Shown piece by piece: positions 13,114-64,000 of a stretch of DNA of 64,000 bases. The position numbers were made by a program, and so were the translations under genes. The stretch covers positions 6,955-70,954 of the forward strand of contig JANPIY010000208.1 in assembly GCA_031425255.1 (NCBI GenBank), written 5' to 3'. Origin of the DNA: Planctomycetota bacterium (GTDB lineage: Bacteria; Planctomycetota; UBA11346). The notes beneath the pieces were generated by a model. It saw only the letters and a list, made by a program, of their open reading frames with translations, was not told the origin of the DNA and made no database searches. How positions within the stretch are numbered: the first letter of the stretch is position 1; each line of letters starts with the position of its first letter.

Positions 13114-13136
13114 GGCAGTCCTTTCGAGGATCCGGC

Positions 13137-14717: not shown

Positions 14718-14925
14718 GGGATTACCTTTCACGACGGGTCAGGACAGGCTGGGCAGAAGTGGTCTGCGCGAGAAGATGATCGTTCTGAGCAACGAATGGC
14801 GCGAGTGTGGTTCGACATGTCATCGGGTTCCTAACAGTCACTGCGGCACCTCAGGTGGATGTGATACACAAGACGTGGTACCAAATCCTGTTGAGGCGAC
14901 TTTTTGCAATTGTGAGCGGCTGAGC

Positions 14926-35487: not shown

Positions 35488-35504
35488 AGACGAGGATCGC
35501 CCCC

Positions 35505-36548: not shown

Positions 36549-36589
36549 GCCGGCTCCCGTCCCGCTTCTTTCGCGCCTCCGGAGACACC

Positions 36590-45684: not shown

Positions 45685-45689
45685 CAGCC

Positions 45690-45795
45690 GTCCGATGTCC
45701 GATGTCGAACCGCCTTGCTTCACTCCGGAGTTTCCATGCCAGCCAATGACCCTCTTCCCACGATGACATCGGACATCGGACATCGGACATCGGAC
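45690..45795. repeat. inverted tandem-heptamer element, family 1, bracketing the DUF1501 RBS/start
   Basis: Left arm GTCCGATGTCCGATGTC (45690..45706). Right arm (GACATCG)x4 GAC (45765..45795). A 17-bp perfect stem is possible in three registers. The loop contains GGAG (45727..45730) and the ATG at 45736. Confidence 0.9.
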
Positions 45796-47187
45796 GTCCT
45801 TCCCCGCCGCGCCTTCCTCGCCCGCGCCGCCTGTGGCATGGGCGGCATCGCTCTCGCCGGCCTGTTCGCGGGCAATGCGGCTGCCGAGGAACGTTGGCGT
45901 GGCATCATCAAGCCGCAGGCGCCGGTGAAGGCCAAGCGCATCATCCATCTGTGTATGGCCGGCGGGCCGTCGCACCTGGAGACCTTCGATTTCAAGCAGG
46001 CGCTCAAAGACCTGAACGGCAAACCGTTTCCGGACTCCTTCACCAAGGGACAACAGCTCGCGCAGCTCCAGGGCAGCGAGCTCAAGGCGCGCGGCCCGTT
46101 CACCGAATTCAAGAAATGGGGCAAATCCGGCCAGGAGATCTCGACGCTGTTCCCGCATCTCGGCTCGATCGCCGACGACCTCTGCATCATCCGCTCGATG
46201 CACACCGAACAGATCAACCACGACACCGCCCACGCCTTCATGAACACCGGCTCGATCATCAAGGGACGGCCGAGTTGGGGTTCGTGGATGGTCTATGGCC
46301 TCGGCGCGGAGACCGAGGAACTCCCAGGCTTCGTGGTGATGACCTCGCAAGGCCGTGGCGGTGGCGCCCAGCCGGTGTCGGCACGCCAGTGGTCGTCGGG
46401 GTTCCTGCCCAGCAAATTCCAGGGCATCCAGTTCCAGTCCAAGGGCGACGCGGTGCACTACGTCGCCAATCCGGCTGGCGTCGATGCGCCGACCCAGCGC
46501 GGCGTGATCGATGAGGTCACCCGCCTCAACGACCTCCTCGACCAGCGCATCCACGACCCCGAGATCGCCACCCGCAACAGCCAGTACCAGATGGCCTACC
46601 GCATGCAGACCTCGGTGCCCGACCTCACCGACGTGGGCAAGGAGCCGAAGGCGGTGCTGGAGCGTTACGGCATCAAGAAGCCAGGCGATGGCAGCTTCGC
46701 CAGCAATTGCCTGCTGGCCCGGCGCATGGCCGAGCGCGGCGTGCGCTTCATCCAGCTCTACCACCGCGCCTGGGATCACCATGGCGACATCGAGAAGAAC
46801 ATGCCGCTCGCCGCCGAGGAGACCGACCGCTCGAGCGCCGCCTTGATCATGGACCTCAAGGAACGCGGCATGTTGGACGACACGCTGGTGTTGTGGGGTG
46901 GCGAGTTCGGCCGCACCCCGATGGGCCAGGGCTCCGGGCGCGACCATCACATCCTGGGGTTCTCGGTCGCGCTGGCCGGCGGCGGCATCAAGCCCGGCAT
47001 CACCTTCGGCGCCACCGATGAACTCGGCTACAAGGCCGTCGAGCACCCGGTGAGCGTCCACGACCTGCATGCCACCATGCTGCACCTCTGCGGCATCGAC
47101 CACCTCAAGCTGACCTACCGCACGCAAGGCCGCGACTTCCGTCTGACCGACGTGTTCGGCGAGGTGGTGAAGCCGATCCTGGCGTGA
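45736..47187 (+). CDS. DUF1501 domain protein (Tat signal)
   Basis: GGAG 5 nt before the ATG at 45736. 'RRAFLARAACGMGGIALAG' Tat motif, MAGGPSHLETFD, WDHHG, GGEFGRTP. Alternative starts are TTG 45715 and ATG 45763. The heptamer array is translated as TSDIGHRTSD just before the RR motif. Confidence 0.88.
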   Translation: MPANDPLPTMTSDIGHRTSDVLPRRAFLARAACGMGGIALAGLFAGNAAAEERWRGIIKPQAPVKAKRIIHLCMAGGPSHLETFDFKQALKDLNGKPFPDSFTKGQQLAQLQGSELKARGPFTEFKKWGKSGQEISTLFPHLGSIADDLCIIRSMHTEQINHDTAHAFMNTGSIIKGRPSWGSWMVYGLGAETEELPGFVVMTSQGRGGGAQPVSARQWSSGFLPSKFQGIQFQSKGDAVHYVANPAGVDAPTQRGVIDEVTRLNDLLDQRIHDPEIATRNSQYQMAYRMQTSVPDLTDVGKEPKAVLERYGIKKPGDGSFASNCLLARRMAERGVRFIQLYHRAWDHHGDIEKNMPLAAEETDRSSAALIMDLKERGMLDDTLVLWGGEFGRTPMGQGSGRDHHILGFSVALAGGGIKPGITFGATDELGYKAVEHPVSVHDLHATMLHLCGIDHLKLTYRTQGRDFRLTDVFGEVVKPILA

Positions 47188-48428: not shown

Positions 48429-49454
48429 TCAACCGACGGCGTGGTAGGTCGTCCCGCGCGTCTTGCCGCGCATGGTGGCATGACCGTTCACGACCAGTTG
48501 CCGCAGGAGCGCGCGTACGATGACGGCTTTCCAACCGAGCGCGACCTGGGCCTCGGCACAGGTCAATACCTGCGACCGCTGCAGGAGGCGCAGCAGACGC
48601 GCTGATGGATCCTGCGCCGGTTTCTGTCTCGTGACGCTCACGCTGGCCGCTGCCGGAGCGGACGGTTTGACCGTCTTCGCTGCCACCTTCATGACCAGGC
48701 CGCTGCGCTTCTGACCGCCTTGGCCGGCTGGTGGCGTGCTGACGTCGGCCTCCATTTCCAGTCCGAACAACGCGCCAACCTCCGCCACTGCGAGCGTCCG
48801 GCCGGAACCCGGACCGGTGGTCTTCGCCAGCAACCCCACGCCCGCCTGGGCCAGCAGGTCGGTGGGGTTGGTCTGACGCAAAGTGAACAGCAGCTCCGGC
48901 TGGTGATCGAGTCGCGCGCCGACCCCGTACAGCACGGCTGCGGCATGTTTGCACAGGTACGACCCGTCCGGACAGCTGCATTCCACCCGGATCTGCTTGG
49001 GCGAGGGGAAGAGCCCGTCGTCCTGGTGGCACAGGCGCTCCATCACCGCGGCAGCGAAATGGCCCTGCAGGAGTTCGACCAGCGAATCGATACCGCCGGC
49101 GCATGCCGTGCAGAGCTGCGCCCAGGCGGTCTTTTTCAGCGGGGCTATGGTGATGGTGACCCGGTACATGGACGAGCCGCTGATGTGGGCTGCGATCCGT
49201 CCTGGTGCCACCTGCAGGTCCACGACCGAGCCGTTGCGCGCGTAGGTGCGACCGCGCGGCAGGCGGTTGGCGTAATCGCTATAGGCTTCCAGATGCGTAC
49301 ACCACGCCTTCCCCCACACGGTGGTGGCGATCGCGCGGCCCGTGATCACCACCGGCGATACCGGGTGGCCTTTCTTGGCCAACCGGGCCATCGCCGCCGC
49401 GGCGTTCTTGCGGCGTTCAGCGACCGGTACATAGGGGGCCCATTCATAGAACAT
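48429..49454 (-). CDS. SWIM zinc-finger protein with a C-terminal winged-helix-like region
   Basis: 'VECSCPDGSYLCKHAAAVLY' is a CxC...CxH SWIM motif. The N-terminus 'TTVWGKAWCTHLEAYSDYANRLPRGRTYARNG' is typical of SNF2-associated SWIM proteins. Confidence 0.85.
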   Translation of the reverse strand: MFYEWAPYVPVAERRKNAAAAMARLAKKGHPVSPVVITGRAIATTVWGKAWCTHLEAYSDYANRLPRGRTYARNGSVVDLQVAPGRIAAHISGSSMYRVTITIAPLKKTAWAQLCTACAGGIDSLVELLQGHFAAAVMERLCHQDDGLFPSPKQIRVECSCPDGSYLCKHAAAVLYGVGARLDHQPELLFTLRQTNPTDLLAQAGVGLLAKTTGPGSGRTLAVAEVGALFGLEMEADVSTPPAGQGGQKRSGLVMKVAAKTVKPSAPAAASVSVTRQKPAQDPSARLLRLLQRSQVLTCAEAQVALGWKAVIVRALLRQLVVNGHATMRGKTRGTTYHAVG

Positions 49455-49456
49455 GT

Positions 49457-52165
49457 TCAGGCCTCAGCGCTGGCGGTAGAGAGGTCGAGACTCACGAGTT
49501 TCAGCAACTCGTCATTAGAAAGGGCCGTGAGGTCGGGCTCGCCGCGGCGATGATCGTCGAGCAGGTCATCGGAGAGCGCGCGTTTCGAGGCCATCATGGC
49601 GTCGATCTTCTCTTCGATGGTGCCACGACAGACGAATTTATGCACCAGGACCTGACGCGTCTGGCCGATGCGGAAGGCACGGTCGGTGGCCTGGTTCTCC
49701 ACCGCGGGGTTCCACCACCGATCGAAGTGGATGACGTGCGATGCGGCGGTGAGGTTCAAGCCGGAACCGCCCGCCTTGAGCGACAACACGAAGAAGGGCA
49801 CGGACTGGTCCTCTTGGAAGCGCTGCACCAGGTCCTTTCGTTCCTTCACTGCCGTTTCTCCGGTGAGTACCAGCCCTGGACGGCCGAAGATCGCACCCAG
49901 GAACGCGGCCAGAGGTGCGGTGGTTTCACGGAACTGCGAGAACACCAGCATCTTCTCCTGCTTTGCCGCGATGACCTCGGCGAGTTCGCGCAGACGGGCG
50001 AGCTTACCGCTGTCGGCCTCGGCCCAGGCACCATCACCGAGCCAGTGCGAGGGATGATTGCAGATCTGCTTGAAGCGCATGAGGAACGCCAGGACGACTC
50101 CTTTGCGTTTGATACCGTCCAGGTCATCGCCGGCCAGCGTCTTGGCGAGTTCGCCCACCCCTTGCTGGTACAACGCCGCCTGCCGCCGCGACAACGCGCA
50201 GAATGCCGTGAGTTCGATCTTGTCCGGCAGATCGCTGATCACCGACTTGTCGGTTTTGAGCCGCCGCAGCAGATAAGGCTGCACCAGGGCGCGTAGCGGC
50301 GCATACCCCCGTGGCGTACCGGCGAGGCTCTTGGTGAAGGTGGTGAAGGCCTTGGCGCTGCCGAGCAAACCGGGGTTGATGAAATCGACGATCGACCACA
50401 GGTCGCTCAGGCGGTTTTCGATCGGTGTGCCCGTCAAAGCGATGCGCGACTGGGCGGTCAGTTGCTTCACCGCGCGCGTCTGCCGGGTGCCCGGGTTCTT
50501 GATCGCTTGTGCTTCATCGAGCACCGCCAACCGCCAGCGGGTGGCACCCATCCATGACAGGCGACCGAGCGCGCCGTAGCTGGTGATGACCAGATCGAAA
50601 GCCGCCATGCCCGATGCCGTCAGGGCTTTCAATGCCTCACCCGGCATTGCCGAGGGATGTGCGACCAGCACACGCAGGGACGGTGCGAAGCGGGCGACCT
50701 CCTGCGCCCAATTGGCGAGCAGTGATGCCGGAGCCACCAGCAGGTTGGGGGCGCTCCCCTCCGTCTGCTTCCGCACCAGCAACAGAGCGATGATCTGGAT
50801 GGTCTTCCCCAGACCCATGTCGTCGGCCAGGCACGCACCCAGACGGAGGCGGGAAAGCAGGTGCAACCAGCGGACACCGACTTGTTGATACGGCCGCAAG
50901 GTGGCGTGCAGGTCCCGGCCGGGGTCGACCGCGACCAGCCCCTGGGGTCCGCGCAGGCTCTGCAGGGTCTCCGCCAGCCAGGGGCCGGCGACCACCTGCG
51001 ACCACTCGGCCTCGATGCGCATGCCGGGATCGTCTGGCGCCACGCCGGCACCAGCCAGCAAGCGCATCGCGGCGTGGAAACCCAGACCCTTCTGCCGCGC
51101 CACCGCTTCGACCTGCTTGAAGTGATCGAGCGTCTTTTCCAGACGGGCGCGATCGACCTCCACCCAGCGGCCACGGATCAGCACCAGATCCTGGGAGCCG
51201 GCGAGCAACTGGCCGGCTTCCGTGGCCGTCAGCGGCTCGCCGTCGAGCGCGAGGTCGATGGTGAAATCAAGCAACGCATCCTGTCCGAGCTGCGTTGGGG
51301 CTGTGGCGCCCACGGTGGCCTTGACCTGCGCACGCGCCGGCCGGTTCGCACGCCAGGTCGCCGGCATGCGGACGATCAGGCCGGCCTGTTCCAGCTGCGG
51401 CACATCGTGGAGGAATTGCAGTGCTTCAGCAGCGGACCAGCGCAGCGGATGAAAGATCTCACGGCTGTCGATCAACGCCTTCAGCCAGGCGCAGCGCTCG
51501 CCGGCGCGCTGCAACGGCACCAATAGCGCCAGCAGGCGATCCTTGTTCGCCGTGCCGGCGAATTCCTGCAGGGCCTGCCCCAACGGCTGATGCTGGGTCT
51601 TCGCCTGCGCCGACAGCCGCGTGGTGTAGGTCGCCAGGAAGGCAAACGGCTGGTGCTCATCTTTGCGGTTTTCGGCCAGGTGCACGTGCACCCGACCGAC
51701 CAGATGCCAAGCGGGATTGCGCGACTGCAGGAATGCCGGCAACGGCTGACGCGCACTGGCGAACTCGTCGGTGAACGCCTCACCGAGTCCCGACCACAAC
51801 TCCTGCAGGAGTTCGGCGGTGAGGTACTCGGCGCCCGCCATGGGCGGAGCGGTGGCGACCAGACTCCTCAACTCGTCGAGGAGCGGCGCGGGAGGACAAG
51901 GGACGGTCTGCTGCGAAAGGTCCGGCAGCATGCACAACGCCGAGACGAAACGCGCTGAGAGATCACGCCACCAGGCGATCACCGGCGGCAGCGCCACTCC
52001 GATGTCGCACATGCCCATGGACAACAGGCCATGACCAGTGCCGCTAGTGAAGGCGGCGAGCAGGCGCGTCCGCATGGCCACCGGCAGCGGCGCATCATCG
52101 CCATCGAGGGTCAGGATGAGCTGGCCGCGCGGAGTCAGTGCGAGGGAGTGGCCGCGATCGTTCAA
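49457..52165 (-). CDS. SNF2-family helicase/ATPase with a bacterial SNF2-helicase-associated N-terminal domain
   Basis: 'LADDMGLGKTIQIIALLL' (motif I), 'LAVLDEAQAIKN' (DExx), 'LTGTPIENRL', C-terminal 'LKAGGSGLNLTAASHVIHFDRWWNPAVENQATDRAFRIGQ'. The TTG start overlaps the upstream stop (TTGA). The alternative internal ATG is at 52075. Confidence 0.92.
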   Translation of the reverse strand: MNDRGHSLALTPRGQLILTLDGDDAPLPVAMRTRLLAAFTSGTGHGLLSMGMCDIGVALPPVIAWWRDLSARFVSALCMLPDLSQQTVPCPPAPLLDELRSLVATAPPMAGAEYLTAELLQELWSGLGEAFTDEFASARQPLPAFLQSRNPAWHLVGRVHVHLAENRKDEHQPFAFLATYTTRLSAQAKTQHQPLGQALQEFAGTANKDRLLALLVPLQRAGERCAWLKALIDSREIFHPLRWSAAEALQFLHDVPQLEQAGLIVRMPATWRANRPARAQVKATVGATAPTQLGQDALLDFTIDLALDGEPLTATEAGQLLAGSQDLVLIRGRWVEVDRARLEKTLDHFKQVEAVARQKGLGFHAAMRLLAGAGVAPDDPGMRIEAEWSQVVAGPWLAETLQSLRGPQGLVAVDPGRDLHATLRPYQQVGVRWLHLLSRLRLGACLADDMGLGKTIQIIALLLVRKQTEGSAPNLLVAPASLLANWAQEVARFAPSLRVLVAHPSAMPGEALKALTASGMAAFDLVITSYGALGRLSWMGATRWRLAVLDEAQAIKNPGTRQTRAVKQLTAQSRIALTGTPIENRLSDLWSIVDFINPGLLGSAKAFTTFTKSLAGTPRGYAPLRALVQPYLLRRLKTDKSVISDLPDKIELTAFCALSRRQAALYQQGVGELAKTLAGDDLDGIKRKGVVLAFLMRFKQICNHPSHWLGDGAWAEADSGKLARLRELAEVIAAKQEKMLVFSQFRETTAPLAAFLGAIFGRPGLVLTGETAVKERKDLVQRFQEDQSVPFFVLSLKAGGSGLNLTAASHVIHFDRWWNPAVENQATDRAFRIGQTRQVLVHKFVCRGTIEEKIDAMMASKRALSDDLLDDHRRGEPDLTALSNDELLKLVSLDLSTASAEA

Positions 52166-53484: not shown

Positions 53485-54174
53485 TCACCCCTTTGCGGAG
53501 GCGAATGCCTCCGCCAGCAGCTCGAGCACCACTGCGGCGTGATCGCTGCCCTGCCCGGACGGTTCCAGCTTCATCGCCGTCAGACCGCCCTCGATCTCCA
53601 GGATCGCCAAGCCGTGGACCGCGGCGAGCGCGAGCAGCAGGCGCGGCTGCAACCGCGCCGAGGCGCGGTTGCGGAAGCCCAGGAAGTCCTGCATCGCCTC
53701 CGACACCAGCAGCCAATTTGCGCCGCGCGCGTCCATGAGGTCCTGGTTGCCGGCATCGAGCAGATCCGAGCGCCACATCAGGCGGAACCATTCCCGGTGT
53801 TCGCGGGCGAAGCCCAGGTAGGCCAGCCCGGTCGCCTGGAGGCGCAGGAACGGGTTCTTGCCCGCAGACTCCAATCCGGCGAGCTGGCGTTGATTGAGCG
53901 CTTCGCAACCCGCGGTGGCGATCGCCGTCAGCAGGCCGCGCAGCTCGGGGAAATGATTGATCGGCGCGGCATGCGACACCCCCACCGCGCGCGCCACCGC
54001 GCGGATGGTGAGCCCGGCGAGGCCCTCGCGTTCGAGGACGTGCACCCCCGCCGCCACCAGCGACGCGCGCAGGTTGCCATGATGATAGGCCTTGCGCCGG
54101 CGGACGGGGGCCTTGCTGACGGGCGGCTTGCGGGTGCTCACGCGTGCATCGTGGCGGCCTCTCGCCACGATCAA
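53485..54174 (-). CDS. TetR/AcrR-family transcriptional regulator
   Basis: HTH region 'AYHHGNLRASLVAAGVHVLEREGLAGLTIRAVARAVGVSHAAPINHF'. Start uncertain: TTG 54174 or in-frame GTGs a few codons downstream. Confidence 0.88.
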   Translation of the reverse strand: MIVARGRHDARVSTRKPPVSKAPVRRRKAYHHGNLRASLVAAGVHVLEREGLAGLTIRAVARAVGVSHAAPINHFPELRGLLTAIATAGCEALNQRQLAGLESAGKNPFLRLQATGLAYLGFAREHREWFRLMWRSDLLDAGNQDLMDARGANWLLVSEAMQDFLGFRNRASARLQPRLLLALAAVHGLAILEIEGGLTAMKLEPSGQGSDHAAVVLELLAEAFASAKG

Positions 54175-54228
54175 ATATTGACAGCGACAAGATCAGGCCA
54201 CAGGATCAGATCTTGTCGCTGTCAATAT
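54175..54228. promoter_or_regulatory. 20-bp perfect inverted repeat pair (candidate TetR operator) in the divergent tetR/ABC intergenic region
   Basis: ATATTGACAGCGACAAGATC (54175..54194) and its exact reverse complement GATCTTGTCGCTGTCAATAT (54209..54228), 14-nt spacer. Each arm contains TTGACA. The right arm ends on the first in-frame ATG of the permease ORF. Confidence 0.65.
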
Positions 54229-55402
54229 GCAGCACCCGGGAAGGCGTGGGACGGCGATGGGCATGTTACGGATCGCCTGGGCGATGCTCACCGCCGACCG
54301 CACCAAGTTCCTCGGCATGGTCGCCGCCGTGGCTTTCGCCACCTTGATGCTGCAGAACCAGACCTCGATCTTCGCCGGCATCATGCTGCGTACCGCCCAC
54401 CAAGTGCTCGACGTGGCCGAGGCCGACCTCTGGATCATGGATCCGGGCACGCGTTACTTCGACGAGACGCGCGGGCTGCCGGGGGGCGCGGTCGAACGCG
54501 TGCGCGCGGTCGCTGGCGTTGCCTGGGCGGTGCCGCTGCGCAAGCGCAACGCCACCCTGCGCACAACCGACGGGCGTTTCCGCCAAGCGCTGGTGATCGG
54601 CGTCGACGACGGGAGCCTGGTCGGCATGCCGCGGCGGATGGTTCTGGGCGCGGCTGAAGACCTGCGCCAGCCGGATGCGATGATCATCGATCGCGCGGGC
54701 TTCATCGAACTGTTCCCTGGTCAGCCGCTCGCGCTCGGTGCGGTGGTGGAGAGCGGCGATCAGCGCCTGGTGATCGTCGGCATCAGCGAGGCCTCCGCGC
54801 CGTTCGCACCCTTCCCCATCGTGCATGTGCGCGGGACGGTGGCCGCGCTGATGCCGGTGCCACCACGCGAGGACATCTCCTTCGTCGTCGCCAGCGCCGC
54901 CAAGGGCCACGCGCCGACGGCGCTCGCCGAGGACATCGCCCGTGCCACCGGCCTGCGCGCGCGCACCACCGCCGACTTCAGCTGGGACTGCATCGATTTC
55001 TACCTCGGCAATACCGGCATCCCGGTGAACTTCGGCATCACCATCGCGCTGGCGGTGCTGATCGGGGCGGCGGTCTCCGGGCTGACCTTCTCGCTGTTCG
55101 TGCGCGACAACCTCAGCGCCTTCGCCGCACTCAAGGCCATCGGCGTGACCAACCGCGGCATCCTGGGCATGGCCCTGTTCCAGGCGCTGGCGGTGGTGGC
55201 GATCGGCTGTGCGCTGGGCACCGGCATGTCGGCGGTGTTCTTCGAGATCCTCAGCACGCAGATCGCGACCCGCGGTATCACCATGCCGGTCTCCATCACC
55301 CTCGGCGCCGTCGCGGTCCTGCTGACGGTAGTGGTCGCCGCCAGCGCAGCCAGCATCCGCAGCGTGCTACGCCTGGATCCAGCCGAGGTCTTCCGCGCAT
55401 GA
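54227..55402 (+). CDS. ABC exporter permease, FtsX-fold, DevC-like size (~390 aa)
   Basis: N-terminus 'MLRIAWAMLTADRTKFLGMVAAVAFATLML' plus a short periplasmic domain and 3 C-terminal TM helices. Start is 54227, 54257 or 54263. The stop overlaps the ATPase start (ATGA). Confidence 0.85.
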   Translation: MQHPGRRGTAMGMLRIAWAMLTADRTKFLGMVAAVAFATLMLQNQTSIFAGIMLRTAHQVLDVAEADLWIMDPGTRYFDETRGLPGGAVERVRAVAGVAWAVPLRKRNATLRTTDGRFRQALVIGVDDGSLVGMPRRMVLGAAEDLRQPDAMIIDRAGFIELFPGQPLALGAVVESGDQRLVIVGISEASAPFAPFPIVHVRGTVAALMPVPPREDISFVVASAAKGHAPTALAEDIARATGLRARTTADFSWDCIDFYLGNTGIPVNFGITIALAVLIGAAVSGLTFSLFVRDNLSAFAALKAIGVTNRGILGMALFQALAVVAIGCALGTGMSAVFFEILSTQIATRGITMPVSITLGAVAVLLTVVVAASAASIRSVLRLDPAEVFRA

Positions 55403-56109
55403 CTCCCCCCGCGGTCGAACTGGAGGCGGTGACCAAGTCCTTCCCCTCGCCCGAGGGCGAGGTCGCGGTGCTGCGCGGCGTCACGACCAGCATCCTGCCC
55501 GGCGAGATGACCTTCCTCACCGGACCCTCCGGCTGCGGCAAGACCACGCTGCTGAGCGCGATCGCCGGCATGCTGCGCATCGCCAGCGGCAGCATCCGCC
55601 TGCTCGGGCACGACCTCGCCAGCCTGCGCGGCGATGAGCTGGTGCGCCTGCGCCGGCGGCGGATCGGCTTCGCCTTCCAGCAGTACCACCTGCTGGGCGC
55701 CCTCAACGCGGTGGAGAACGTCAGCGTGCCGCTGATCGCCGATGGCCGCCCACGTCGCCACGCCGAGGCGGTCGCCGCGGCGATGCTGACCCGCCTCGGC
55801 CTCGGCGGCAAACTCCAGCTCACGCCCAAACAGTTGTCGGGCGGCCAACAGCAGCGCGTCGCCCTGGGCCGGGCGCTGGTACATGAACCCGACCTGGTGC
55901 TGTGCGATGAGCCCACCGCAGCCCTCGATCACCGCTCCGGGGACGCGGTGATGGAGCTACTGCGCGCCATCGCGGTCGCTCCAGGGCGCGCGGTGGTGGT
56001 GGTCACCCACGATGCGCGCATGTACCGCTTCGCCGATCGCATCCTCGACATGGAGGACGGCCGCATCACCGCCGATAGCCGTCCCAGCCCCGTCCTGCCG
56101 TCCGCTTGA
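55399..56109 (+). CDS. ABC transporter ATP-binding protein (DevA/MacB-NBD/LolD-like)
   Basis: Walker A GPSGCGKTT, signature LSGGQQQRVALGRAL, Walker B LVLCDEPTAALD. Confidence 0.93.
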   Translation: MTPPAVELEAVTKSFPSPEGEVAVLRGVTTSILPGEMTFLTGPSGCGKTTLLSAIAGMLRIASGSIRLLGHDLASLRGDELVRLRRRRIGFAFQQYHLLGALNAVENVSVPLIADGRPRRHAEAVAAAMLTRLGLGGKLQLTPKQLSGGQQQRVALGRALVHEPDLVLCDEPTAALDHRSGDAVMELLRAIAVAPGRAVVVVTHDARMYRFADRILDMEDGRITADSRPSPVLPSA

Positions 56110-56116
56110 GGTCCCC

Positions 56117-57109
56117 ATGCGCCTATCACGTTCCCCCCTGCTGCTAGTCGTCGCGCTGATGTCGGTGGTATTCGCCGCCTGGTCGATCAACCACCTCGAC
56201 GTGCAGCGGGTGGTGGCCGCGCCGGTCGGCACGCCGACGCCGGGCGGGACGCTGGCCGCCACCGGCATCGTCGAACCCACCGGACGCACCTCGCGCCTGG
56301 GCGCGTCGGCGACGGGCCTGGTGACGCGCGTCCTGGTGGCGGTGGGCGATGCCGTGACTGCCGGGCAGCCGTTGCTCGAACAGGATCGCCGCGTCGCCCT
56401 GGCGGCGGTGGCGCGCGCGCGTGCCGAGGTCGAACGCCTGGAGGCACTGCCCCGCGTGGAGGACCTCGCGCAGGCGGAAGCCACCCTCGCAGTCGCGGCG
56501 GCACAGGATAGCGAGGCGCAGGCGCGTCGTGACGAGGCGCGGGCGCTCACCGAGCCCGGCGCGCTCAGCGCGGCCGAACGCGATCGCCGTGAACGCACCG
56601 CGCAGGCCGCCCTCGCCAACCGCGCGGCGGCGCAGGCCGCCCGCGACCGCGTCGCGGCCGGCGCCTGGGCTCCCGACCTGAGGGTGGCACGCGCCGAGCT
56701 GCAACGGGCCGAGGCGATGGCCGAGCTGCTGATCACCCGCGCGCCGCAGTCCGGCACCGTGCTCCAGGTCAATGCGCGCCTGGGCGAGCCGGCCGATCCC
56801 CTGGCGATGGTTCCGCTGGTGGTCATTGGCGACACCAGCGGCTGGCGCATCCGCGCCGCGCTCGATGAGGAGCTGCTGCCCCGCCTGCGCGCGGGCGATG
56901 CCACCGCGCATGTCCGTGGCGCTGGTGGACGGGCGATCCCGTTGCGCTGGCTCGCGAACGACCGCCTGCTGGTGCCCAAGACCACCCTCACCGGCAACCC
57001 CAGCGAACGCGCCGACACGCGGGTGCTGGAGATCCTCTTCGACATCGCCATTCCCGATCACGGCCTGGTCGCCGGGCAGGTGGTCGATGTGCGCTGGAAC
57101 GGGCCATGA
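56117..57109 (+). CDS. HlyD/DevB-family periplasmic membrane-fusion protein
   Basis: GAGG SD 5 nt before the ATG at 56117. N-terminal anchor MRLSRSPLLLVVALMSVVFAAW, coiled-coil hairpin region, beta-barrel C-terminus. ORF 56012 trimmed. Confidence 0.85.
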   Translation: MRLSRSPLLLVVALMSVVFAAWSINHLDVQRVVAAPVGTPTPGGTLAATGIVEPTGRTSRLGASATGLVTRVLVAVGDAVTAGQPLLEQDRRVALAAVARARAEVERLEALPRVEDLAQAEATLAVAAAQDSEAQARRDEARALTEPGALSAAERDRRERTAQAALANRAAAQAARDRVAAGAWAPDLRVARAELQRAEAMAELLITRAPQSGTVLQVNARLGEPADPLAMVPLVVIGDTSGWRIRAALDEELLPRLRAGDATAHVRGAGGRAIPLRWLANDRLLVPKTTLTGNPSERADTRVLEILFDIAIPDHGLVAGQVVDVRWNGP

Positions 57110-58575
57110 ACAGCGGCGCCCGCTTGCCGACGCTGGCACTGGGTGGCGCGCTGATCGCCCTGCTCGGCGGTTGCGCCGTGGTCGGCCGGGATGCGCAGCC
57201 GCCCGACACCGCCTTCATCGACGACGCGCTCGACGAACCCACACGCGCGGCCGATGCCGGGGCCGCGCAGGGCGAGGCGCTCACCGCCTGGTGGCAGGTT
57301 TATCGCGATCCCACGCTCGACGCCCTGGTGGCGTTGACGGTGACGCAGAACCGCGACCTGCGCGCGGCGTGGGAACTGGTGCGCGCGCAGCGCGCGCTGG
57401 TGGTGGGTGCCGAGGCCGCCGGCCGGCCGCAGGTGGATGCGCTCGGCGATGCCACCCGCCGTGGACGCGGCACGGCCCTGCCGACCGACGGCTATGACCG
57501 CGTCGGCAACCGGTACCAGGCCGCGCTGGTGGCAGGCTGGGAGCTCGACCTGTGGGGCATGGTCCAGCGTCAGGTCGAACAGGCAGTTGCCGGAGTCGAT
57601 GCCGCCAGCGCCGAGGCCCAGGGGCTGCGCCAGGGACTGATCGCGGAAACCGTGCGCTCCTACCTCGCGCTGCGTCATGCCGAGGCGGACACCATGCTGG
57701 CGCGCACGGATCTCGCGGCGGCCCGGCGCCTGCTGCGCCTGCACGATTCCCTGCGCCAGGGCGGCATCGCTAGCGATGCCGCCAGCGACGCCGCCGCCCA
57801 GGAGGTCGAGCTGGCGGTGCAGGCGCTCGCCGCCATGCAGGCCCGGCACGAGACCGCCCTCCGCCGTCTCGCGGTGGCGTGCGGTCGGCCGCCGGCACTG
57901 CTACCGCTCGCCCCAGGTGCGTTGCCATTGCCGGGCAGCGGACTGCCGGCGCTGGTGCCCGCCGAGCTGTTGCGGCAACGGCCGGATCTGCGCGCGCTTG
58001 AGCAGCGCACCGCCGCGCGCATCGCCGCGGCCGGCGTGGCCGAGGGCGACCTCTACCCCCGCGTACGGCTCATCGGAGACCTCGGCCTGACCGCCCAGGT
58101 CCCATCCGACCTGGCGCAACGCGATGCGTCGTTCTGGTCCTTCGGCCTGTCGGTGCAGTGGGCGCTGTTCCGCGGTGGCGCGGTGCGCGCGGGCATCGCC
58201 GCCGCCGATGCCCGCAGCGCCGCTGCCCTGGCCAGCTACGAACAGGCGGTCCTGCGCGCGGTTGGCGAAGTCGGCACGGCGACGGCGGACTGGCAGGCCG
58301 CCGGCCAGCGCCTGGAGTCCAGCACCAGCGAACTGCGCCACGCCGAACGCGCGCTCGCGCACGCGCAACAACGCCAGCGCGCCGGCATCGCCGCCGAGGA
58401 GGAGGTGCTCGCCGCTACGCGCACGCGCATCACGGTGGAACGCCGGGGCCTGGGGCTCCGCCGCGAGCGCGGCGATGCCTACGTCGCCGTGCTCACCGCG
58501 CTGGGCTGCGGCTGGCAGCCCGATCCCGCCGGAGAACCCGCGTCGGCGCAGCCGCTACGCGCGAACGCGCCCTGA
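57106..58575 (+). CDS. outer-membrane efflux factor lipoprotein (NodT/TolC family)
   Basis: ATGA overlap with the MFP stop. Lipobox LLGGC. Two repeated OEP-type helical halves ('RTDLAAARRLLRL...', 'AERALAHAQQRQRAGIAAEEEVL'). Confidence 0.88.
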   Translation: MNSGARLPTLALGGALIALLGGCAVVGRDAQPPDTAFIDDALDEPTRAADAGAAQGEALTAWWQVYRDPTLDALVALTVTQNRDLRAAWELVRAQRALVVGAEAAGRPQVDALGDATRRGRGTALPTDGYDRVGNRYQAALVAGWELDLWGMVQRQVEQAVAGVDAASAEAQGLRQGLIAETVRSYLALRHAEADTMLARTDLAAARRLLRLHDSLRQGGIASDAASDAAAQEVELAVQALAAMQARHETALRRLAVACGRPPALLPLAPGALPLPGSGLPALVPAELLRQRPDLRALEQRTAARIAAAGVAEGDLYPRVRLIGDLGLTAQVPSDLAQRDASFWSFGLSVQWALFRGGAVRAGIAAADARSAAALASYEQAVLRAVGEVGTATADWQAAGQRLESSTSELRHAERALAHAQQRQRAGIAAEEEVLAATRTRITVERRGLGLRRERGDAYVAVLTALGCGWQPDPAGEPASAQPLRANAP

Positions 58576-58743: not shown

Positions 58744-61700
58744 CTAATTCATCAAGACCGGTATCTCCGCCGCATCCCCCGAGGGCGTGCCCAGGCGCAG
58801 GCAGCCGTCCACCAGCACCTGCGGCAGGGCGGCCGGCAGCCACTGGCCATCGGCGGCGGGCTTGAACCACTGGGCGTGATGTTCGCCCCATGCGAGCTTC
58901 GTCAGCTGGCCTTCGCTCCCCTCGCGGAAGTAGTCGACATGCAGGCGGATGCCCTGGGCGTGGAGCGCAACCAGCGCGATACGGATCAGGATAGTGTCGA
59001 AGGGCATCGCCTCGCGCAGGTGGTCGACCTTGGTGTAGGTGCAGCGCAATTCGCCAGCGGCGCCAACGCCACGCAGCAGTTCGGGCGCCATGCGCTGGAA
59101 ACAGGTGTCGACGATGCGTCCCTGCCAGAGGTAGTAATTGGCGAAGTAGATGTTCCCGACCAGGTTCGCATCCTCCAGCGTGGTGTGGAAACGCTGCTCG
59201 TGCAGGACCACGCGTCCGACCGGACCATGCACGCTCTGCCGCACAACCGGACCCAGGCCGGCGCTGGCGCCGACCTCCCACGGCTGCTCGGCGGCGACCA
59301 CCGGGGCGATGCGGGCGATGAACTCCTGGTAGTAGGCCGGGAAGGGCCGCGCAGCCACCAGGCCATGATCGAGGATCTCGACCCAGGTCGCGGTCATCTT
59401 GCTGCGGCCCAGCAGGACGCGCTCGCCGGATGCGCGTTCCGCGCTCCATTCATAACACAGGTCCATGGTCGAGGCGCTCGGGCCGTATACCCGGTCGAGC
59501 CACACCCGGCCTTCGATGACGTCGCAGGTCGAGGCGCTGCCGAGGATGCAGGTCTCGGAACGGTTGGTCACCATGCCCCAGCGACCGCTGCTGAACTGCT
59601 CGACCAGGGCAGCGTAGACCGGTTGGCAGGCGGCTTCGCGCAACTTGCCCATCCACATGGCGAAATGGCTGAAGTACAGATTGCGACTGAGATGCGCGGT
59701 CTCGCGGAAGGTGAGCGGAAAACGCAGGGTGAAGGCGAGCTGGCCCTGGAGCGCGAGATCGAAGCGCATGCCATAGACGTGGGGCGCGAAACCCGCTGGC
59801 TGCGCCGTCTCGCTGGGCGCGGGCGGCACGGCCATCACCGGCGTCACCGGCGTCACCGCCACCGCGCCCACCACCACCGCGATCAGCCGCTGCGGCCCAC
59901 GCCGCCCGCACCAGGGCAGCGTCAGGACGGCCAAGCGTCCGCCGCTGGCGGTGGCCCCGCTCAGCAGTACCGCGGTGTCGCGTCGCGCGGTTATGGCGAG
60001 GTCGAGGATGACGCCGCCACCAGCCTTGCGCACGGCCTCCGCCGCCGCCCACAAGCGGGTCCCGGCGATGTCGAGGCCGCCGCCGCCAGCCACTAGTGCC
60101 GTGAGCAGCGGCGCGTTCGCGCTGCCGATCAGCGCCAGCCAATCGTCGTGGTCCTGACGATGGGTCACCGGCGCGACGTCGCAGCCCTGATCGCCAGCGC
60201 CGACCACCACCAGGCAGGCGCGCTCATCATGCGCGACCGAGACCCCGAAGCCCTCCACGCCGGCCAGCGTGGGCCGATGGTCGGCGGCCCACACCACCTC
60301 GGCACCAACCAGATCCGCGGCCGCCAGCGTCGCCGTCAGCAGCGGCCGTTCGGCGAGGCGCCGCGCGGCGCGATCCGGTCCATGCCAGTCGCCATAGGCC
60401 AGCGTCAGGAACGGCACGCGCACCCCGAGCGCGCTGGCGGCGTGGTCTAGGCGTTGACGCAGGTCGCCGCTGTCGAACGCATCCGGGTCGGCGATCTGCT
60501 CGGGCGTCGGATGGTCGTCACGACGTTCGAGCACCGCCAAGCGGTAGCCCGTGATCCGCTCCAGGAGCCGGCCGTGCTCATCGCCCACCGTCACGTGCGC
60601 CAGCAGCTGGCGGTCGTTACCGGGCACCGCGCCGTCGAAGACCGCTTCGCCCTGGCGGGCGATCGGCGCCGGTCGTGCCACTGCCTCGGGCTGCCATACG
60701 CGCAGCTCGATGCGGGCGATATGCACCGGCAGGCTCAGCTGCTGCGACACCGTCAATTGCGGCGCCTGCAGCAGGGAATCGCGGAAATACGGATCACCGA
60801 GCAGGTACGTCTCCTCGCCATCCGCCGCGACGCGGTAGTCGCGTTGTTCGGAGGTGAAGGTGCAGGTGTGCGAATCCAGGGTATGGATATGCCGCAGGCG
60901 CTGGAAGCGCGGCCCTTGAAACAGCAGCCAGCTGTAGAGATCCTGCCGCGGGTCGATGGGCAGCGGCTGGGCGGAGAAGACCGGCAGAGCGGCGGGCGTC
61001 GACACCGGCGCCGCGAACACCAGGGTCGCGGTGAAGTGATCGCGCGCGAAACCGGTGGCCTCGCTGGTGATGCCGACGTGGACGCGATAAGGGCTGGTGT
61101 GGTCCGCGCGTTCCTCGACGCGCGCGCGCAAGGCGATGAGCGTGCCCTGCCGCTGGTCGACCACGATCGGACGTTCGAGGTGGATGTCCTCGATGGTGAG
61201 CGCGGCGATGACCGGCAGGCCGAGCACCCAGGCCGCGGCCTGGGCCATGGCTTCCAGGCCGAACACGGTGGGGAACAGGGCCGAGCCCTTGTAGATGTGG
61301 TCGGCGACGTAGGGATCGCGGGCCAGGGTCAGCCGGGTGCGCACGCGCAGCTCGACGCCGGGAATGAAGCCCTGGACCTCGTCGAGGTAGCGTGCCGCCA
61401 TTGGCTTCGCCGGCACCAGCGGGATCCAGGTGTCGAGGCCGCCGAGCGGCGCGCTGATGATGACCTCGCTGCTGCCGGGATCATGGCTGACCAGTTTGAG
61501 GAAGCGGTCGATGCCCTCGCGCGGCGGGATGGCGCCGATGCCCAGGCGCGCGAGATGCTGATCGCTGCCCATGCGCGCACCCATGCCGACCTCGGCCCAC
61601 ACGCTGTAGGCCAGCGAGATGACGTGGGTGCCCGGATGATCGTGCGCGAAGGCGCGAAGGAGCTGCGCCAGGGTCTCATTGGAGAAGGCGTACCACGCGT

Positions 61701-64000
61701 TGCCGGCCATGCCGGAGATGCCGATGATCGAGGAGAAGCCGACGATCAGCCTGGGCGGCGTCGACGCGAGCGCCGTCAGCAGATTGAGCGCGCCCTGGAC
61801 CTTGGGACCGACCTCGGCCAGGGCCACGGCGGCGGTCGCCTGGTCGGCGCGCCGCGGCTTATTGATCGCGGCGCCGTGGATCAGACCGGTGATCGCTCCG
61901 AGCTCACGACGCACATCCGCCACCAGCCCGTCGACCGCCTTGGCATCGACCACATCGCACTGGTAATAACGCGCGGTGAGGCCCGCCTCGTGGAAGCGCG
62001 CCAAGGTGGCGCGCACCTCCTCGCCCGCCGGCGAGCTGCCGACCAGGACCATGCGCACGCCGGTGGCCTGCGCCTGCGCCAAGGCGCAGGCGGCAGTGAT
62101 CCCGCGTGCACCACCGCTGACCAGCACCACGTCGCTGCTGTTCCAGGCCAGTTCGCGTGGCGACCACGACACCGGCTCCGTCAGCACTGACCTGGGTACC
62201 CGGCGCGTGCGCTGGAGATCGTAGGCCGCCCGCGCATAGCGCACGCTGCCGGCCAGTTCCGCCACCACTAGCGGCGCGAGGTCGGCCACTGGCAGGGTTG
62301 GATCGGCGTCGATCACGCGCACGCGCAGGTCGGGTCGTTCCAGGTGCAGGCTGGCGGCGAAGGCACCGGTGCCGGCCTGGGCGAGGCCGGCGGTTCCACC
62401 GGCGCCGAACTGCACGATGGCCAGGAGCGGCTGGGCGCCACCCGCATGCGCGCGCGCCACCGTGGCGAGGGCGTGCAACCGTGCGACTGCGATATCCAGA
62501 CGCGGCTGGGCGGCGTCCTCGCGGCACAGCAGGCCAATGCGGTGGGAATACTGCGGATCGCTGAGCACGTCCGTGCCAAGCGCAACGGCATAGGTGCAAC
62601 TGCGCACCTCGGCAGCCGCGGCGAGCAACGCGGCGCGCAGGACGGCGACCAGGTCGGCCTCGCTCTCCTCGTGCAGCAGCAGCACGCGCGCACCACGCAG
62701 ACCATCGCCGGGCATGGCCGCCAGCGGCTCCGGCACCAACTCCATGCGGAAGCAGCGCACCCAGTCGGAGACCTCGACCGGCGGCGCCAGCGGGCTGGCG
62801 GATGCCACCGGCGCGAGCAGCTCGGCGAAGGCACGGGCGATGTCGCCTAGCGTGGCATTGGCGTACAGCGAGGCGTCGACCGCCGCAGTCAGCCCGACGG
62901 ATTTCGCCCCCGCCGCGACCAGTTCGCCGGCCTTGATCGAATCGAGGTTGAGATCGTCGAGCAGGCGCAGGCCGAGGCGCAGCCCCGCGCGCGCGAAGCC
63001 GGTGCGCTGGGCGACGAGGTCGAGCAACAGCGAGCCGATCGCGGCACTATCAGCGGTGGTCGCGGTGACGGCCTGCGGCAGTGGCGCGCTCGCGACGCCC
63101 ACCGGCAGCGCGCCGCTCAGGGCCTCGGCCACCTCATGCAGCGTGGCATTGGCGAACAGGCTGGGATCGATGCCGCTGGCGATGCCGAGTTCACGCGCCG
63201 CGCTGCCGACCAGTTCCGCCGCCTTGATCGAGTCGAGATTGAGGTCATCGAGCAGGCGCAGGGTGGGCCGGATGCCGGCCAGCGCGAAACCGGTGCGCGC
63301 CGCCACCAGCGCCATCAGCCGGGTTTCGATGGCCTGGCTGGTGACGGGCAGTGCGGCGGGCAATGCGGCGGGCAATGTGGCGAGCAGTGCCGTCGACACC
63401 CCCGTGACCACGCGCCCGGTGGACGGCGGCACGGTAGCGGTGACCGCCGGCTGGGACAGACCAGGGAGGTCGAGGTCGGCGCGGATCACCTGACCGAGGA
63501 AGGTGCCACGGCGCGCGAGGTAGTCGCCGAGCACGCCGGATTCCATCCCGCTGAGCGCGGCCAGCGTCGCCACCGTGCCGCCATCTCCTGCCGTCAACGC
63601 CAGTGGCGTCCAGGCCTGGGTCGGACGGAACGGCCGCTCGCAGGGATTGTCGATGAAGCGTTTGTGCGTGGTCGGCGTGAACGGGCGGATCAGGCGGTCG
63701 CGGTGGAGCTCCGCCCAGGCGATGGTGTGGCCACCGCAGAACGCGCGCGCGAGCACCGCCTGGAGATCGCGGTCGTTACCAGGACGCGCGGCCACCGGCA
63801 GGCACAACTCGCGGTCGAGCGTATCGCGCATGAGCCCGCTGAGCACGCGGCCCGGGCCGACCTCGATGACATGATCAACCTCCCGCGCCAATTGCGTGGT
63901 GATGGCGACGAAATCCACCGGCGCGGCGATCTGCCGCCCGACATGCTCGCGCAGCGGCAGCTGCGCGGTGATGGCCTGGCCGGCGATCCCCGAGTGCAGC
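58744..64000 (-). CDS. iterative type I polyketide/secondary-lipid synthase, C-terminal >1750 aa (N-terminus outside window): AT(part)-ACP-ACP-KR-DH-PPTase-like-4HBT-4HBT
   Basis: By hand translation the frame stays open from 63918 to the window edge (...GIAGQAITAQLPLREHVGRQIAAPVDFVAI...). Domain motifs are listed in the sub-features below. Confidence 0.9.
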   Translation of the reverse strand, partial: LHSGIAGQAITAQLPLREHVGRQIAAPVDFVAITTQLAREVDHVIEVGPGRVLSGLMRDTLDRELCLPVAARPGNDRDLQAVLARAFCGGHTIAWAELHRDRLIRPFTPTTHKRFIDNPCERPFRPTQAWTPLALTAGDGGTVATLAALSGMESGVLGDYLARRGTFLGQVIRADLDLPGLSQPAVTATVPPSTGRVVTGVSTALLATLPAALPAALPVTSQAIETRLMALVAARTGFALAGIRPTLRLLDDLNLDSIKAAELVGSAARELGIASGIDPSLFANATLHEVAEALSGALPVGVASAPLPQAVTATTADSAAIGSLLLDLVAQRTGFARAGLRLGLRLLDDLNLDSIKAGELVAAGAKSVGLTAAVDASLYANATLGDIARAFAELLAPVASASPLAPPVEVSDWVRCFRMELVPEPLAAMPGDGLRGARVLLLHEESEADLVAVLRAALLAAAAEVRSCTYAVALGTDVLSDPQYSHRIGLLCREDAAQPRLDIAVARLHALATVARAHAGGAQPLLAIVQFGAGGTAGLAQAGTGAFAASLHLERPDLRVRVIDADPTLPVADLAPLVVAELAGSVRYARAAYDLQRTRRVPRSVLTEPVSWSPRELAWNSSDVVLVSGGARGITAACALAQAQATGVRMVLVGSSPAGEEVRATLARFHEAGLTARYYQCDVVDAKAVDGLVADVRRELGAITGLIHGAAINKPRRADQATAAVALAEVGPKVQGALNLLTALASTPPRLIVGFSSIIGISGMAGNAWYAFSNETLAQLLRAFAHDHPGTHVISLAYSVWAEVGMGARMGSDQHLARLGIGAIPPREGIDRFLKLVSHDPGSSEVIISAPLGGLDTWIPLVPAKPMAARYLDEVQGFIPGVELRVRTRLTLARDPYVADHIYKGSALFPTVFGLEAMAQAAAWVLGLPVIAALTIEDIHLERPIVVDQRQGTLIALRARVEERADHTSPYRVHVGITSEATGFARDHFTATLVFAAPVSTPAALPVFSAQPLPIDPRQDLYSWLLFQGPRFQRLRHIHTLDSHTCTFTSEQRDYRVAADGEETYLLGDPYFRDSLLQAPQLTVSQQLSLPVHIARIELRVWQPEAVARPAPIARQGEAVFDGAVPGNDRQLLAHVTVGDEHGRLLERITGYRLAVLERRDDHPTPEQIADPDAFDSGDLRQRLDHAASALGVRVPFLTLAYGDWHGPDRAARRLAERPLLTATLAAADLVGAEVVWAADHRPTLAGVEGFGVSVAHDERACLVVVGAGDQGCDVAPVTHRQDHDDWLALIGSANAPLLTALVAGGGGLDIAGTRLWAAAEAVRKAGGGVILDLAITARRDTAVLLSGATASGGRLAVLTLPWCGRRGPQRLIAVVVGAVAVTPVTPVMAVPPAPSETAQPAGFAPHVYGMRFDLALQGQLAFTLRFPLTFRETAHLSRNLYFSHFAMWMGKLREAACQPVYAALVEQFSSGRWGMVTNRSETCILGSASTCDVIEGRVWLDRVYGPSASTMDLCYEWSAERASGERVLLGRSKMTATWVEILDHGLVAARPFPAYYQEFIARIAPVVAAEQPWEVGASAGLGPVVRQSVHGPVGRVVLHEQRFHTTLEDANLVGNIYFANYYLWQGRIVDTCFQRMAPELLRGVGAAGELRCTYTKVDHLREAMPFDTILIRIALVALHAQGIRLHVDYFREGSEGQLTKLAWGEHHAQWFKPAADGQWLPAALPQVLVDGCLRLGTPSGDAAEIPVLMN
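58849..59787 (-). other. PKS domains: two tandem 4HBT/YbgC-type hot-dog thioesterase folds (approximate)
   Basis: The second fold has 'TLEDANLVGNIYFANYYLWQGR' (YbgC-like DxN..G.vy..Y). The first has 'RETAHLSRNLYFSHFAMWMGK' and lacks the Asp. Confidence 0.65.
59884..60471 (-). other. PKS domain: Sfp-type phosphopantetheinyl-transferase-like region with altered metal-binding motif (approximate)
   Basis: 'GVSVAHDERACLVVVGAGDQGCDVAPV' (cf. SxSH...GxDxE) and 'RLWAAAEAVRKAGGG' (cf. WxxKEAxxK). Confidence 0.55.
60514..61386 (-). other. PKS domain: PS-type dehydratase (double hot-dog), approximate
   Basis: 'ADHIYKGSALFP' = HxxxGxxxxP; second half 'GDPYFRDSLLQ' = DxxxQ. Confidence 0.8.
61429..62136 (-). 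other. PKS domain: ketoreductase catalytic subdomain (approximate)
   Basis: Rossmann 'VVLVSGGARGITAA', 'LIHGAAI', 'GNAWYAFSNETL' (Y..N). Confidence 0.8.
62815..63045 (-). other. PKS domain: ACP 2 (approximate bounds), tandem duplicate of ACP 1
   Basis: 'LRLLDDLNLDSIKAGELV'. Flanking sequence is parallel to ACP 1. Confidence 0.8.
63109..63336 (-). other. PKS domain: ACP 1 (approximate bounds)
   Basis: 'LRLLDDLNLDSIKAAELV', phosphopantetheine Ser in an LDSIK context (PUFA/PKSE-like). Confidence 0.8.

Follow-up and report, generated by a model that had tools for sequence, protein, structure and literature searches.

The stretch of DNA analysed here (the window) comprises 64,000 nucleotides of contig JANPIY010000208.1 from a Planctomycetota bacterium (GenBank assembly GCA_031425255.1, positions 6,955 to 70,954 of the forward strand). 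At its far end lies the 3′ part of a polyketide synthase (PKS) gene, on which a four-gene efflux operon (54227..58575), situated directly 3′ of it, converges; a gene for a TetR-family regulator follows (Table 1). The translated PKS frame (58744-63999, minus strand) is open over 1751 sense codons, has its stop codon at 58744-58746 and leaves the window at its end; the start at 63918 given for it in the open reading frame (ORF) list is merely an internal GTG and not the start of the gene. Residue numbers (e.g., Ser257) are those of the window translation, residue 1 being located at the window end. The closest homologue, a protein of 2570 residues from an ENA metagenome (P0001, encoded at locus L001), is 94% identical across 100% of the query and is aligned from its residue 827 on, which means that the gene extends ~2.46 kb past the window end. 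The window part corresponds to residues about 827-2577 of an iterative type I PKS of roughly 2570 residues. Between the window gene and that for P0001 (94-95% identical), the ratio of nonsynonymous to synonymous substitution rates (dN/dS) was 0.24, which indicates purifying selection; together with the intact frame and the presence of the expected motifs, this value rules out a pseudogene. The contig encoding P0001 begins 158 bp 5′ of its PKS gene. As for the missing 5′ end, a scan of the GTDB genomes with P0001 gave no match, and a scan of JGI metagenomes returned only three irrelevant ketoreductase (KR) fragments.

The ketosynthase (KS) and most of the acyltransferase (AT) were taken from P0001, where Pfam places the KS at residues 10-419 (GACSSS active site, HGTGT and the second His present) and the AT at residues 594-890 (GHSLG at 693); by sequence match, this AT closely resembles that of DynE8. 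Residues 1-110 of the window protein are 98% identical to residues 827-936 of P0001, and malonyl transacylase (PDB 3im9) matches window residues 8-64. Two acyl carrier proteins (ACPs) follow; each ACP query matches two places in homologues, and the best PDB match of the first one is the ACP of CalE8 (2l9f, E=8.5e-9). The catalytic half of the KR is recognised by Pfam (KR, E=1.3e-25; adh_short, E=6e-14), and the KR domains of PksJ and MlnE are its matches in the PDB (E about 1e-16 to 1e-17). In the PKS-type dehydratase (DH), the Pfam families PKS_DH_N and PS-DH cover residues 883-968 and 1010-1160, respectively, and both motifs are present: HIYKGSALFP at 901 (His901, HxxxGxxxxP) and DSLLQ at 1074 (Asp1074, DxxxQ). 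No Pfam match to an enoylreductase (ER) or methyltransferase domain was obtained in the window protein. Including the C-terminal domains described below, the full predicted domain order is KS-AT-ACP-ACP-KR-DH-phosphopantetheinyl transferase (PPTase)-hot dog-hot dog.

Table 1. Features of the PKS locus in the window (residues as in the window translation).
Feature	Position	Strand	Residues and evidence
PKS gene, 3′ part	58744..64000	minus	5.26 kb, 1751 codons + stop
AT C-terminal end and post-AT linker	63808..63999	minus	residues 1-64 = AT
ACP1	63118..63321	minus	residues 227-294, Ser257 in LNLDSI; Pfam PP-binding E=1.8e-7
ACP2	62824..63030	minus	residues ~324-392, Ser354 in LNLDSI; second motif at 350
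KR	61420..62772	minus	structural half ~410-620, catalytic half 625-803, YAFSN at 770
PKS-type DH	60520..61353	minus	residues 883-1160; PKS_DH_N E=2e-10, PS-DH E=3e-15
Sfp-type PPTase-like domain	59860..60504	minus	residues ~1166-1380; profile, model, Foldseek
Hot dog 1	59308..59772	minus	residues ~1410-1564; Arg1454-Glu1455 equivalent to CalE7 Arg37-Glu38
Hot dog 2	58792..59247	minus	residues ~1585-1736; Asn19 and Tyr29 equivalents kept, Arg37 equivalent is Val1630
FtsX/MacB-type permease	54227-55402	plus	Pfam
ABC ATPase	55399-56109	plus	Pfam
HlyD-type adaptor	56012-57109	plus	Pfam; true start probably near 56117
Outer-membrane factor	57106-58575	plus	Pfam
TetR-family regulator	53485-54174	minus	Pfam TetR_N + TetR_C_33; divergent from the efflux operon

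The C-terminal 590 residues were not recognised by Pfam or NCBIfam, except for a match of the second hot dog to 4HBT_2 at E=0.07; for the PPTase-like region, neither the whole protein nor isolated C-terminal segments gave a usable match in these collections. A profile built from this region and 27 homologues (28 sequences, A1) matched Sfp (1qr0 and 4mrt) at E=3.4e-4, with the GKP, SH, GxD, and WxxxExxxK motifs in register. The AlphaFold model of the region (mean predicted local distance difference test score, pLDDT, of 92.9) contains the two-lobed PPTase fold, and the first 27 PDB structures listed by Foldseek for it were all Sfp-type PPTases except for one low-probability hit, with PptT, PptAb, AASDHPPT, and Sfp among those at probability 1.00. 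Among the 28 diverse family members, His1257, Asp1274, Glu1321, and Lys1325 show no or almost no variation; the Pro of the GKP motif, which reads HRP in the window protein, is conserved. The region is also colinear with the PPTase domain of a Streptomyces enediyne PKS (PKSE).

Hot dog 1 lacks a Pfam match as well as any direct database match. For hot dog 2, phmmer identified the thioesterases CalE7 (2w3x, E=3e-13), SgcE10 (4i4j, E=1.5e-12), and DynE7 (E=2e-9) in the PDB, and further an Actinomadura-type thioesterase (5vpj and 9ccr). When aligned to each other by hhalign, the two hot dogs matched at 99.3% (E=1e-20), which shows hot dog 1 to be a diverged duplicate of hot dog 2. The di-domain was modelled with a pLDDT of 81.4 and a predicted template modelling score (pTM) of 0.82 and showed two helix-in-sheet units. 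Its best Foldseek matches were double hot-dog acyl-ACP/acyl-CoA thioesterases (E about 1e-11 to 1e-12, template modelling scores 0.5-0.7); a pair of FabA-type dehydratases was ruled out because sequence and fold matches point to thioesterases. Double hot-dog thioesterases (plant FatA/FatB, bacterial 2own and 2ess, Acot7, Acot12) likewise carry two hot-dog folds per chain as a pseudo-dimer, but they are merely 9-15% identical to the window di-domain. Because the sequence kinship of the latter is to the single-domain CalE7 family, its duplication arose independently.

The distribution of catalytic residues was analysed in homologues of the window protein (here and below, the 120 listed of 848 with E<=1e-10). 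Arg37 of CalE7 is the residue that we take to be catalytic, which is consistent with the fact that the sole difference between 5vpj and 9ccr in the aligned stretch is an Arg to Ala exchange at the equivalent position. In hot dog 1, this Arg and the adjacent Glu are each present in 116 of the 120 members. In hot dog 2, the position is occupied by Arg in 68 of 120, and the Asn, Tyr, and Asp equivalents are kept in 114 to 120 of 120. This is the pattern that would be expected for a pseudo-dimer with one complete (composite) active site.

The original prediction, made from the sequence alone, had described a frame running off the window and encoding the end of an AT, two LNLDSI-bearing ACPs, a KR, and a DH, on which translation, Pfam, and motifs agree; the KS it expected upstream is present in P0001. 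It had further placed an Sfp-like PPTase-like region and two hot-dog folds at the C-terminus. Pfam by itself spoke against these two assignments, whereas the family profile, hhalign, and the structural models (with the CalE7, SgcE10, and DynE7 matches of hot dog 2) upheld them. Its proposal of a PKSE-like order with an in-cis PPTase-like domain and a CalE7/SgcE10-type thioesterase fused as a di-domain was equally borne out, by the colinearity with a Streptomyces PKSE from KS to PPTase and by the hot dog 2 matches and the hot dog duplication, respectively.

This Streptomyces PKSE was found by a tblastn search of the PLSDB plasmids, in which Streptomyces plasmid PKSs matched just as far as the PPTase domain. 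The plasmid of Streptomyces sp. NBC_01216 (L093) carries an enediyne cassette with two genes for DUF1702 proteins (E3), one for CRTAC1/UnbV (E4), one for an "enediyne biosynthesis protein" (E5), a PKS of 1961 residues, an acyl-CoA thioesterase E10 of 152 residues, a flavin reductase, and a P450. Its PKSE aligns colinearly with P0001 (KS-AT, 44% identity; ACP region through PPTase, 31%) and is 35% identical to a further homologue, P0003, across 2083 columns; its E10 shares 31.5% identity with hot dog 2. Judged by these alignments, the window protein is homologous to the enediyne synthases (SgcE, CalE8, DynE8), and the predicted E10-type thioesterase, separate in PKSE systems, is fused to its C-terminus in duplicated form. 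Like these PKSEs, it is a single iterative KS-AT-ACP-KR-DH-PPTase module in which no ER was detected, its ACP is nearest to that of CalE8 and its thioesterase to CalE7/SgcE10/DynE7, and some of its close relatives retain the E3/E4/E5 partner genes. Unlike them, it has two ACPs, compared with one in established descriptions of PKSEs, it bears the catalytic Arg in the more diverged thioesterase copy, its host is a planctomycete rather than an actinomycete, and no E3/E4/E5 were found in the window or in 80 related GTDB loci.

The ACP-KR-DH-PPTase-hot dog-hot dog set is common to the listed homologues, save P0070, which lacks the hot dogs; the PPTase query missed P0047. The number of ACPs ranges from 1 to 4, and in some members (Microcystis, Anabaena) the PKS is split downstream of the AT. 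With a di-hot-dog profile, 904 clusters (50% identity) were matched at E<=0.001, 563 at E<=1e-10, and 348 at E<=1e-30; in long proteins, the di-domain is always located at the C-terminus. It is carried by 129 GTDB genomes (one genome per species), mainly of Desulfobacterota, with several Desulfosarcina including closed genomes, and further of Comamonadaceae, Dyella, Cellvibrio, Methylococcales, Thermoactinomycetaceae, Saccharopolyspora, Gaiellaceae, Nitrospiraceae, Bdellovibrionales, Omnitrophota, and Acidobacteriota. Two metagenome-assembled genomes (MAGs) of Planctomycetota (L064, L087) and two of Omnitrophota (L079, L083) are among the carriers. The closed chromosome of Desulfosarcina variabilis contains two copies of the fused synthase (L028, L057), ~7.9 Mb apart. 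Eight members (P0007, P0009, P0010, P0012, labelled Nitrospiraceae, P0014, P0017, labelled Candidatus Methanoperedens, P0023, and P0024) form a subfamily of about 2800-3020 residues with ~500 extra residues past hot dog 2 that match FAD/amine-oxidase families (PF01593, PF13450, PF01266). Read as a phytoene-desaturase-like domain, this extension would point to a polyene product that is desaturated or oxidised further. P0062 carries a fused PilZ (c-di-GMP-binding) domain N-terminal to its PKS part; near a Desulfosarcina copy, PilZ is encoded by a gene of its own (L005, 26370-26849).

Many family members are labelled "enediyne polyketide synthase" in IMG. A survey of KS sequences reported a non-actinobacterial "enediyne-like" clade of type I PKSs which is distinct from all characterised PKSEs, has no reported product, and is overrepresented in marine sediments and Deltaproteobacteria; all 11 enediyne KS domains of MIBiG belong to an actinobacterial lineage that does not include the KSs of this clade (Singh et al. 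2023, PMC10308959). An enediyne-like KS clade is also contained in an earlier study (Calteau et al. 2014, PMC4247773), and a cryptic "enediyne" PKS of Microcystis has been reported (bioRxiv 10.1101/2022.10.12.511943). The family of the window protein appears to be the same as this published clade (Cyanobacteria, Deltaproteobacteria/Desulfobacterota, Firmicutes, and others). In the accessible text of these sources, the clade is classified by KS only; the fused PPTase and double hot-dog C-terminus, the variation in ACP number, and the types of gene neighbourhood are not described in that text, and Planctomycetota are absent from the phyla it lists. In the part of the literature covered, neither a characterised fused member, including any close homologue of identical architecture with a known product, nor a description of the fused C-terminus was found.

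The architecture had originally been regarded as undescribed; given its presence in the listed homologues, in 348 clusters even at E<=1e-30, and in 129 GTDB species, and the IMG labels, this view had to be abandoned. It is not unique, and the window protein adds another member to a large family without a reported product. The synthase had also been called unusual for a genome of the Planctomycetes-Verrucomicrobia-Chlamydiae type. Such a genome it is, as far as its PyrG relatives and its PSCyt, PSD1, and DUF1501 genes tell (see below), whereas the Planctomycetota and Omnitrophota MAGs mentioned above show that the synthase is not unusual there.

The gene neighbourhoods of relatives were compared, including 80 GTDB loci with sequence spanning ~3 kb on the 5′ side of the PKS and 9-10 kb on the 3′ side; homologues of E3, E4, and E5, for which NCBIfam holds no models, were named via Pfam and by comparison with the Streptomyces cassette. 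Genes for DUF1702, UnbV_ASPIC/FG-GAP, and membrane proteins (the last of 307-313 residues) lie alongside the PKS genes encoding P0003 (L007, 11164-15274), which is the third-closest homologue (51% identity to the window protein), and P0005 (L008, 4498-8350; 44%), and they are 36-48% identical to Streptomyces E3, E4, and E5. Genes for SnoaL-like and Polyketide_cyc2/AHSA1 proteins are located upstream at L008. By these matches, L007 and L008, which are metagenomic or MAG contigs, would carry the cassette for an enediyne warhead, with E10 built into the PKS, which makes them candidate enediyne-type clusters, apparently outside Streptomyces. The cyanobacterial loci L004 (Aetokthonos), L006 (Microcystis), and L009 contain two or three paralogous genes for ~600-residue CmlS-like FAD halogenase-like proteins (weak matches to CmlS, LodB, and geranylgeranyl reductase). 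In addition, L004 and L006 encode an alpha/beta hydrolase and an SDR, L009 carries a DUF1702 gene, L004 and L009 have genes for an adaptor and an FtsX-type pump, and L006 ends in an adaptor-like gene. The closest named relative of the window PKS is that of the betaproteobacterium Derxia lacustris (53% identity). Beside the PKS genes of D. lacustris, Desulfosarcina, and the 80 GTDB loci, no E3/E4/E5, halogenase-like, or pump genes were found within the sequence examined, which for E3/E4/E5 in D. lacustris covered 10 kb on either side.

In the window itself, tblastn revealed no homologue of E3, E4, E5, or the halogenases, a scan against Rfam gave no match, and a scan of 53.3-59.0 kb identified neither promoters nor terminators. 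The layout of pump and PKS is the same at the locus encoding P0001, and MacB-type pump genes also occur at the PKS loci L007, L004, and L009; a link between pump and PKS is plausible. From 53.5 kb to the window end, i.e., over the TetR, pump, and PKS genes, the guanine-plus-cytosine (GC) content is 0.69-0.75 compared with ~0.66 in the preceding 5 kb, which is compatible with their joint acquisition. As the nearest named relative of the PKS is betaproteobacterial and the host a planctomycete, horizontal transfer of the PKS is suggested.

Elsewhere, the window consists of ordinary planctomycete chromosomal DNA, with genes for DnaE, PyrG, PSCyt1/PSCyt2/PSD1 with DUF1501, and DUF1800; the named close relatives of PyrG (68-90% identity) are all from Planctomycetota MAGs. 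A PSCyt1/PSCyt2/PSD1 protein (1012 residues) is paired with a DUF1501 protein (490 residues) at 42646-47187, and a DUF1800 gene (531 residues) is followed by an ORF of 416 residues at 11863-14732. Three consecutive plus-strand ORFs (1267, 354, and 428 residues) at 31684-37876, the first and last of which have no Pfam match at E<=1e-5, lie within a stretch of unusually high adenine-thymine skew (~0.2 over 32-38 kb). On the minus strand at 48429-52165, genes for an SNF2-family helicase (902 residues, DUF3670) and a SWIM zinc-finger protein (341 residues) form a pair that is recurrent in bacteria.

In the SgcE/SgcE10 and CalE8/CalE7 systems, the synthase phosphopantetheinylates itself and forms an ACP-bound polyene, which is hydrolysed by the hot-dog thioesterase and decarboxylated to a hydrocarbon or methyl ketone. 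By analogy, the window gene probably encodes a PKSE-type iterative synthase with a fused, duplicated E10-type thioesterase, which would enable it to make a conjugated polyene and release it unaided. Phosphopantetheine would be placed on Ser257 and Ser354 by the PPTase-like domain or by a host PPTase, upon which KS, AT, KR, and DH would work iteratively on malonyl units while the polyene grows on the ACPs; as no ER was detected, reduction would proceed to the enoyl stage and the product would be conjugated. The tandem hot-dog pseudo-dimer would then hydrolyse the thioester in cis, probably at the Arg1454/Glu1455 site of hot dog 1. The free polyene acid leaving the enzyme may lose its carboxyl group to give a polyene hydrocarbon or a methyl ketone, and the neighbouring MacAB/TolC-type pump, under TetR control, may serve to export the product.

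Several observations weigh against parts of this scheme. The window contains the 3′ two thirds of the PKS gene, the 5′ third and everything upstream being located outside. The equivalent of Sfp Glu109, two residues past the Asp of the GxDxE motif, is Ala1276 and the column is variable in the family, in contrast to CDIE at this position in the canonical Streptomyces PKSE, so that self-activation is only putative. In hot dog 2, the more CalE7-like of the two copies, Arg37 is replaced by Val (Val1630-Asp1631). As no product has been reported for any fused member, chain length, release chemistry, and role are extrapolated from actinomycete PKSE/thioesterase pairs that are 31-44% identical. The pump may be associated with the PKS by coincidence, since no FtsX or adaptor match was obtained in the 80 GTDB loci and no pump genes were found beside the Derxia PKS.

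The exchanges at Ala1276 and Val1630 would also be accommodated if the C-terminal domains were partly degenerate, with the PPTase being a relic next to a separately encoded PPTase and the hot dogs serving in a role other than that of a releasing thioesterase, for example as gatekeeper, editing enzyme, or decarboxylase; LnmK, a double-hot-dog acyltransferase/decarboxylase, is included in the Foldseek listing for the di-domain. However, the near invariance of the PPTase His, Asp, Glu, and Lys and the conservation of the hot-dog residues, which fit one composite site, render degeneration quite improbable. Even less credit can be given to a PfaA-type subunit that makes a membrane lipid of the polyunsaturated fatty acid (PUFA) or secondary lipid type together with partner subunits. 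PfaA shares the iterative KS-AT-ACPn-KR-DH layout and the tandem ACPs, and its model TIGR02813 is the best NCBIfam match of the window protein by E-value, in the KR-DH region. The score of 167.8 bits is, however, far below the cut-off of 1010.1 bits, by which a PfaA-type synthase was ruled out, and the ACP number varies within the family. PfaA contains neither a PPTase nor a 4HBT-type thioesterase domain; the presence of both in the window protein, its CalE8-like ACP, and its full colinearity with PKSE oppose this assignment. Moreover, tblastn with a KS query detected no second KS in the window, hence no PfaC-like subunit is evident there, and no partner subunit (KS-chain-length factor with FabA-type DH, ER, AT) was present among the 20 window ORFs scanned with Pfam (PfaB, PfaC, and PfaD were not individually searched). 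The mixture of PUFA-synthase and PKSE features that had been postulated for the protein therefore dissolves: the alignments favour a PKSE homologue with its partner thioesterase fused, not a PUFA/PKSE chimera.

More weight, but still short of making it likely, is due to the idea that a genuine enediyne-type pathway is centred on the locus, in which E3/E4/E5 (UnbL, UnbV, UnbU) would be encoded just upstream, past the window, and the ACP-bound polyene would be converted to an enediyne-like or otherwise cyclised product. P0003 and P0005 have such orthologues in their flanks, L007 carries MacB-type pump genes like those of the window, and up to 8.8 kb of the 72.8-kb source contig lie outside the window, as does the 5′ flank of the gene. 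On the other hand, no E3/E4/E5 homologue is present in the 64 kb, at L007 these genes sit 3′ of the PKS, a side that is occupied by the pump in the window, and neither the more similar Derxia locus nor the 80 GTDB loci have them.

For the majority of the family, which lacks E3/E4/E5, we tentatively consider a widespread one-gene pathway that would activate itself, build a polyene, and release it as an envelope or protective pigment or hydrocarbon unconnected to enediynes, a proposal that is less secure than that of the fused synthase itself. Family members come from Desulfobacterota, Comamonadaceae, cyanobacteria, and Planctomycetota, and possibly also from archaea, one of them being labelled Methanoperedens. 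To our knowledge, all characterised PKSEs are from actinomycetes, and enediynes have otherwise been reported just from extracts of marine ascidians. The locus shows the enzymes of the enediyne-like clade in full, i.e., a PKSE with its PPTase domain and a duplicated in-cis E10-type thioesterase, in a family that usually lacks the E3/E4/E5 genes required to form an enediyne. The rare relatives bearing these genes (L007, L008) would be candidate enediyne producers outside the actinomycetes. Which product the synthase makes, and why it is retained in anaerobes, cyanobacteria, and planctomycetes, is a question that can be addressed with a single gene. If the one-gene pathway holds true, the enediyne pathways of actinomycetes would have branched off, as a specialisation, from a polyene-lipid system of greater age.

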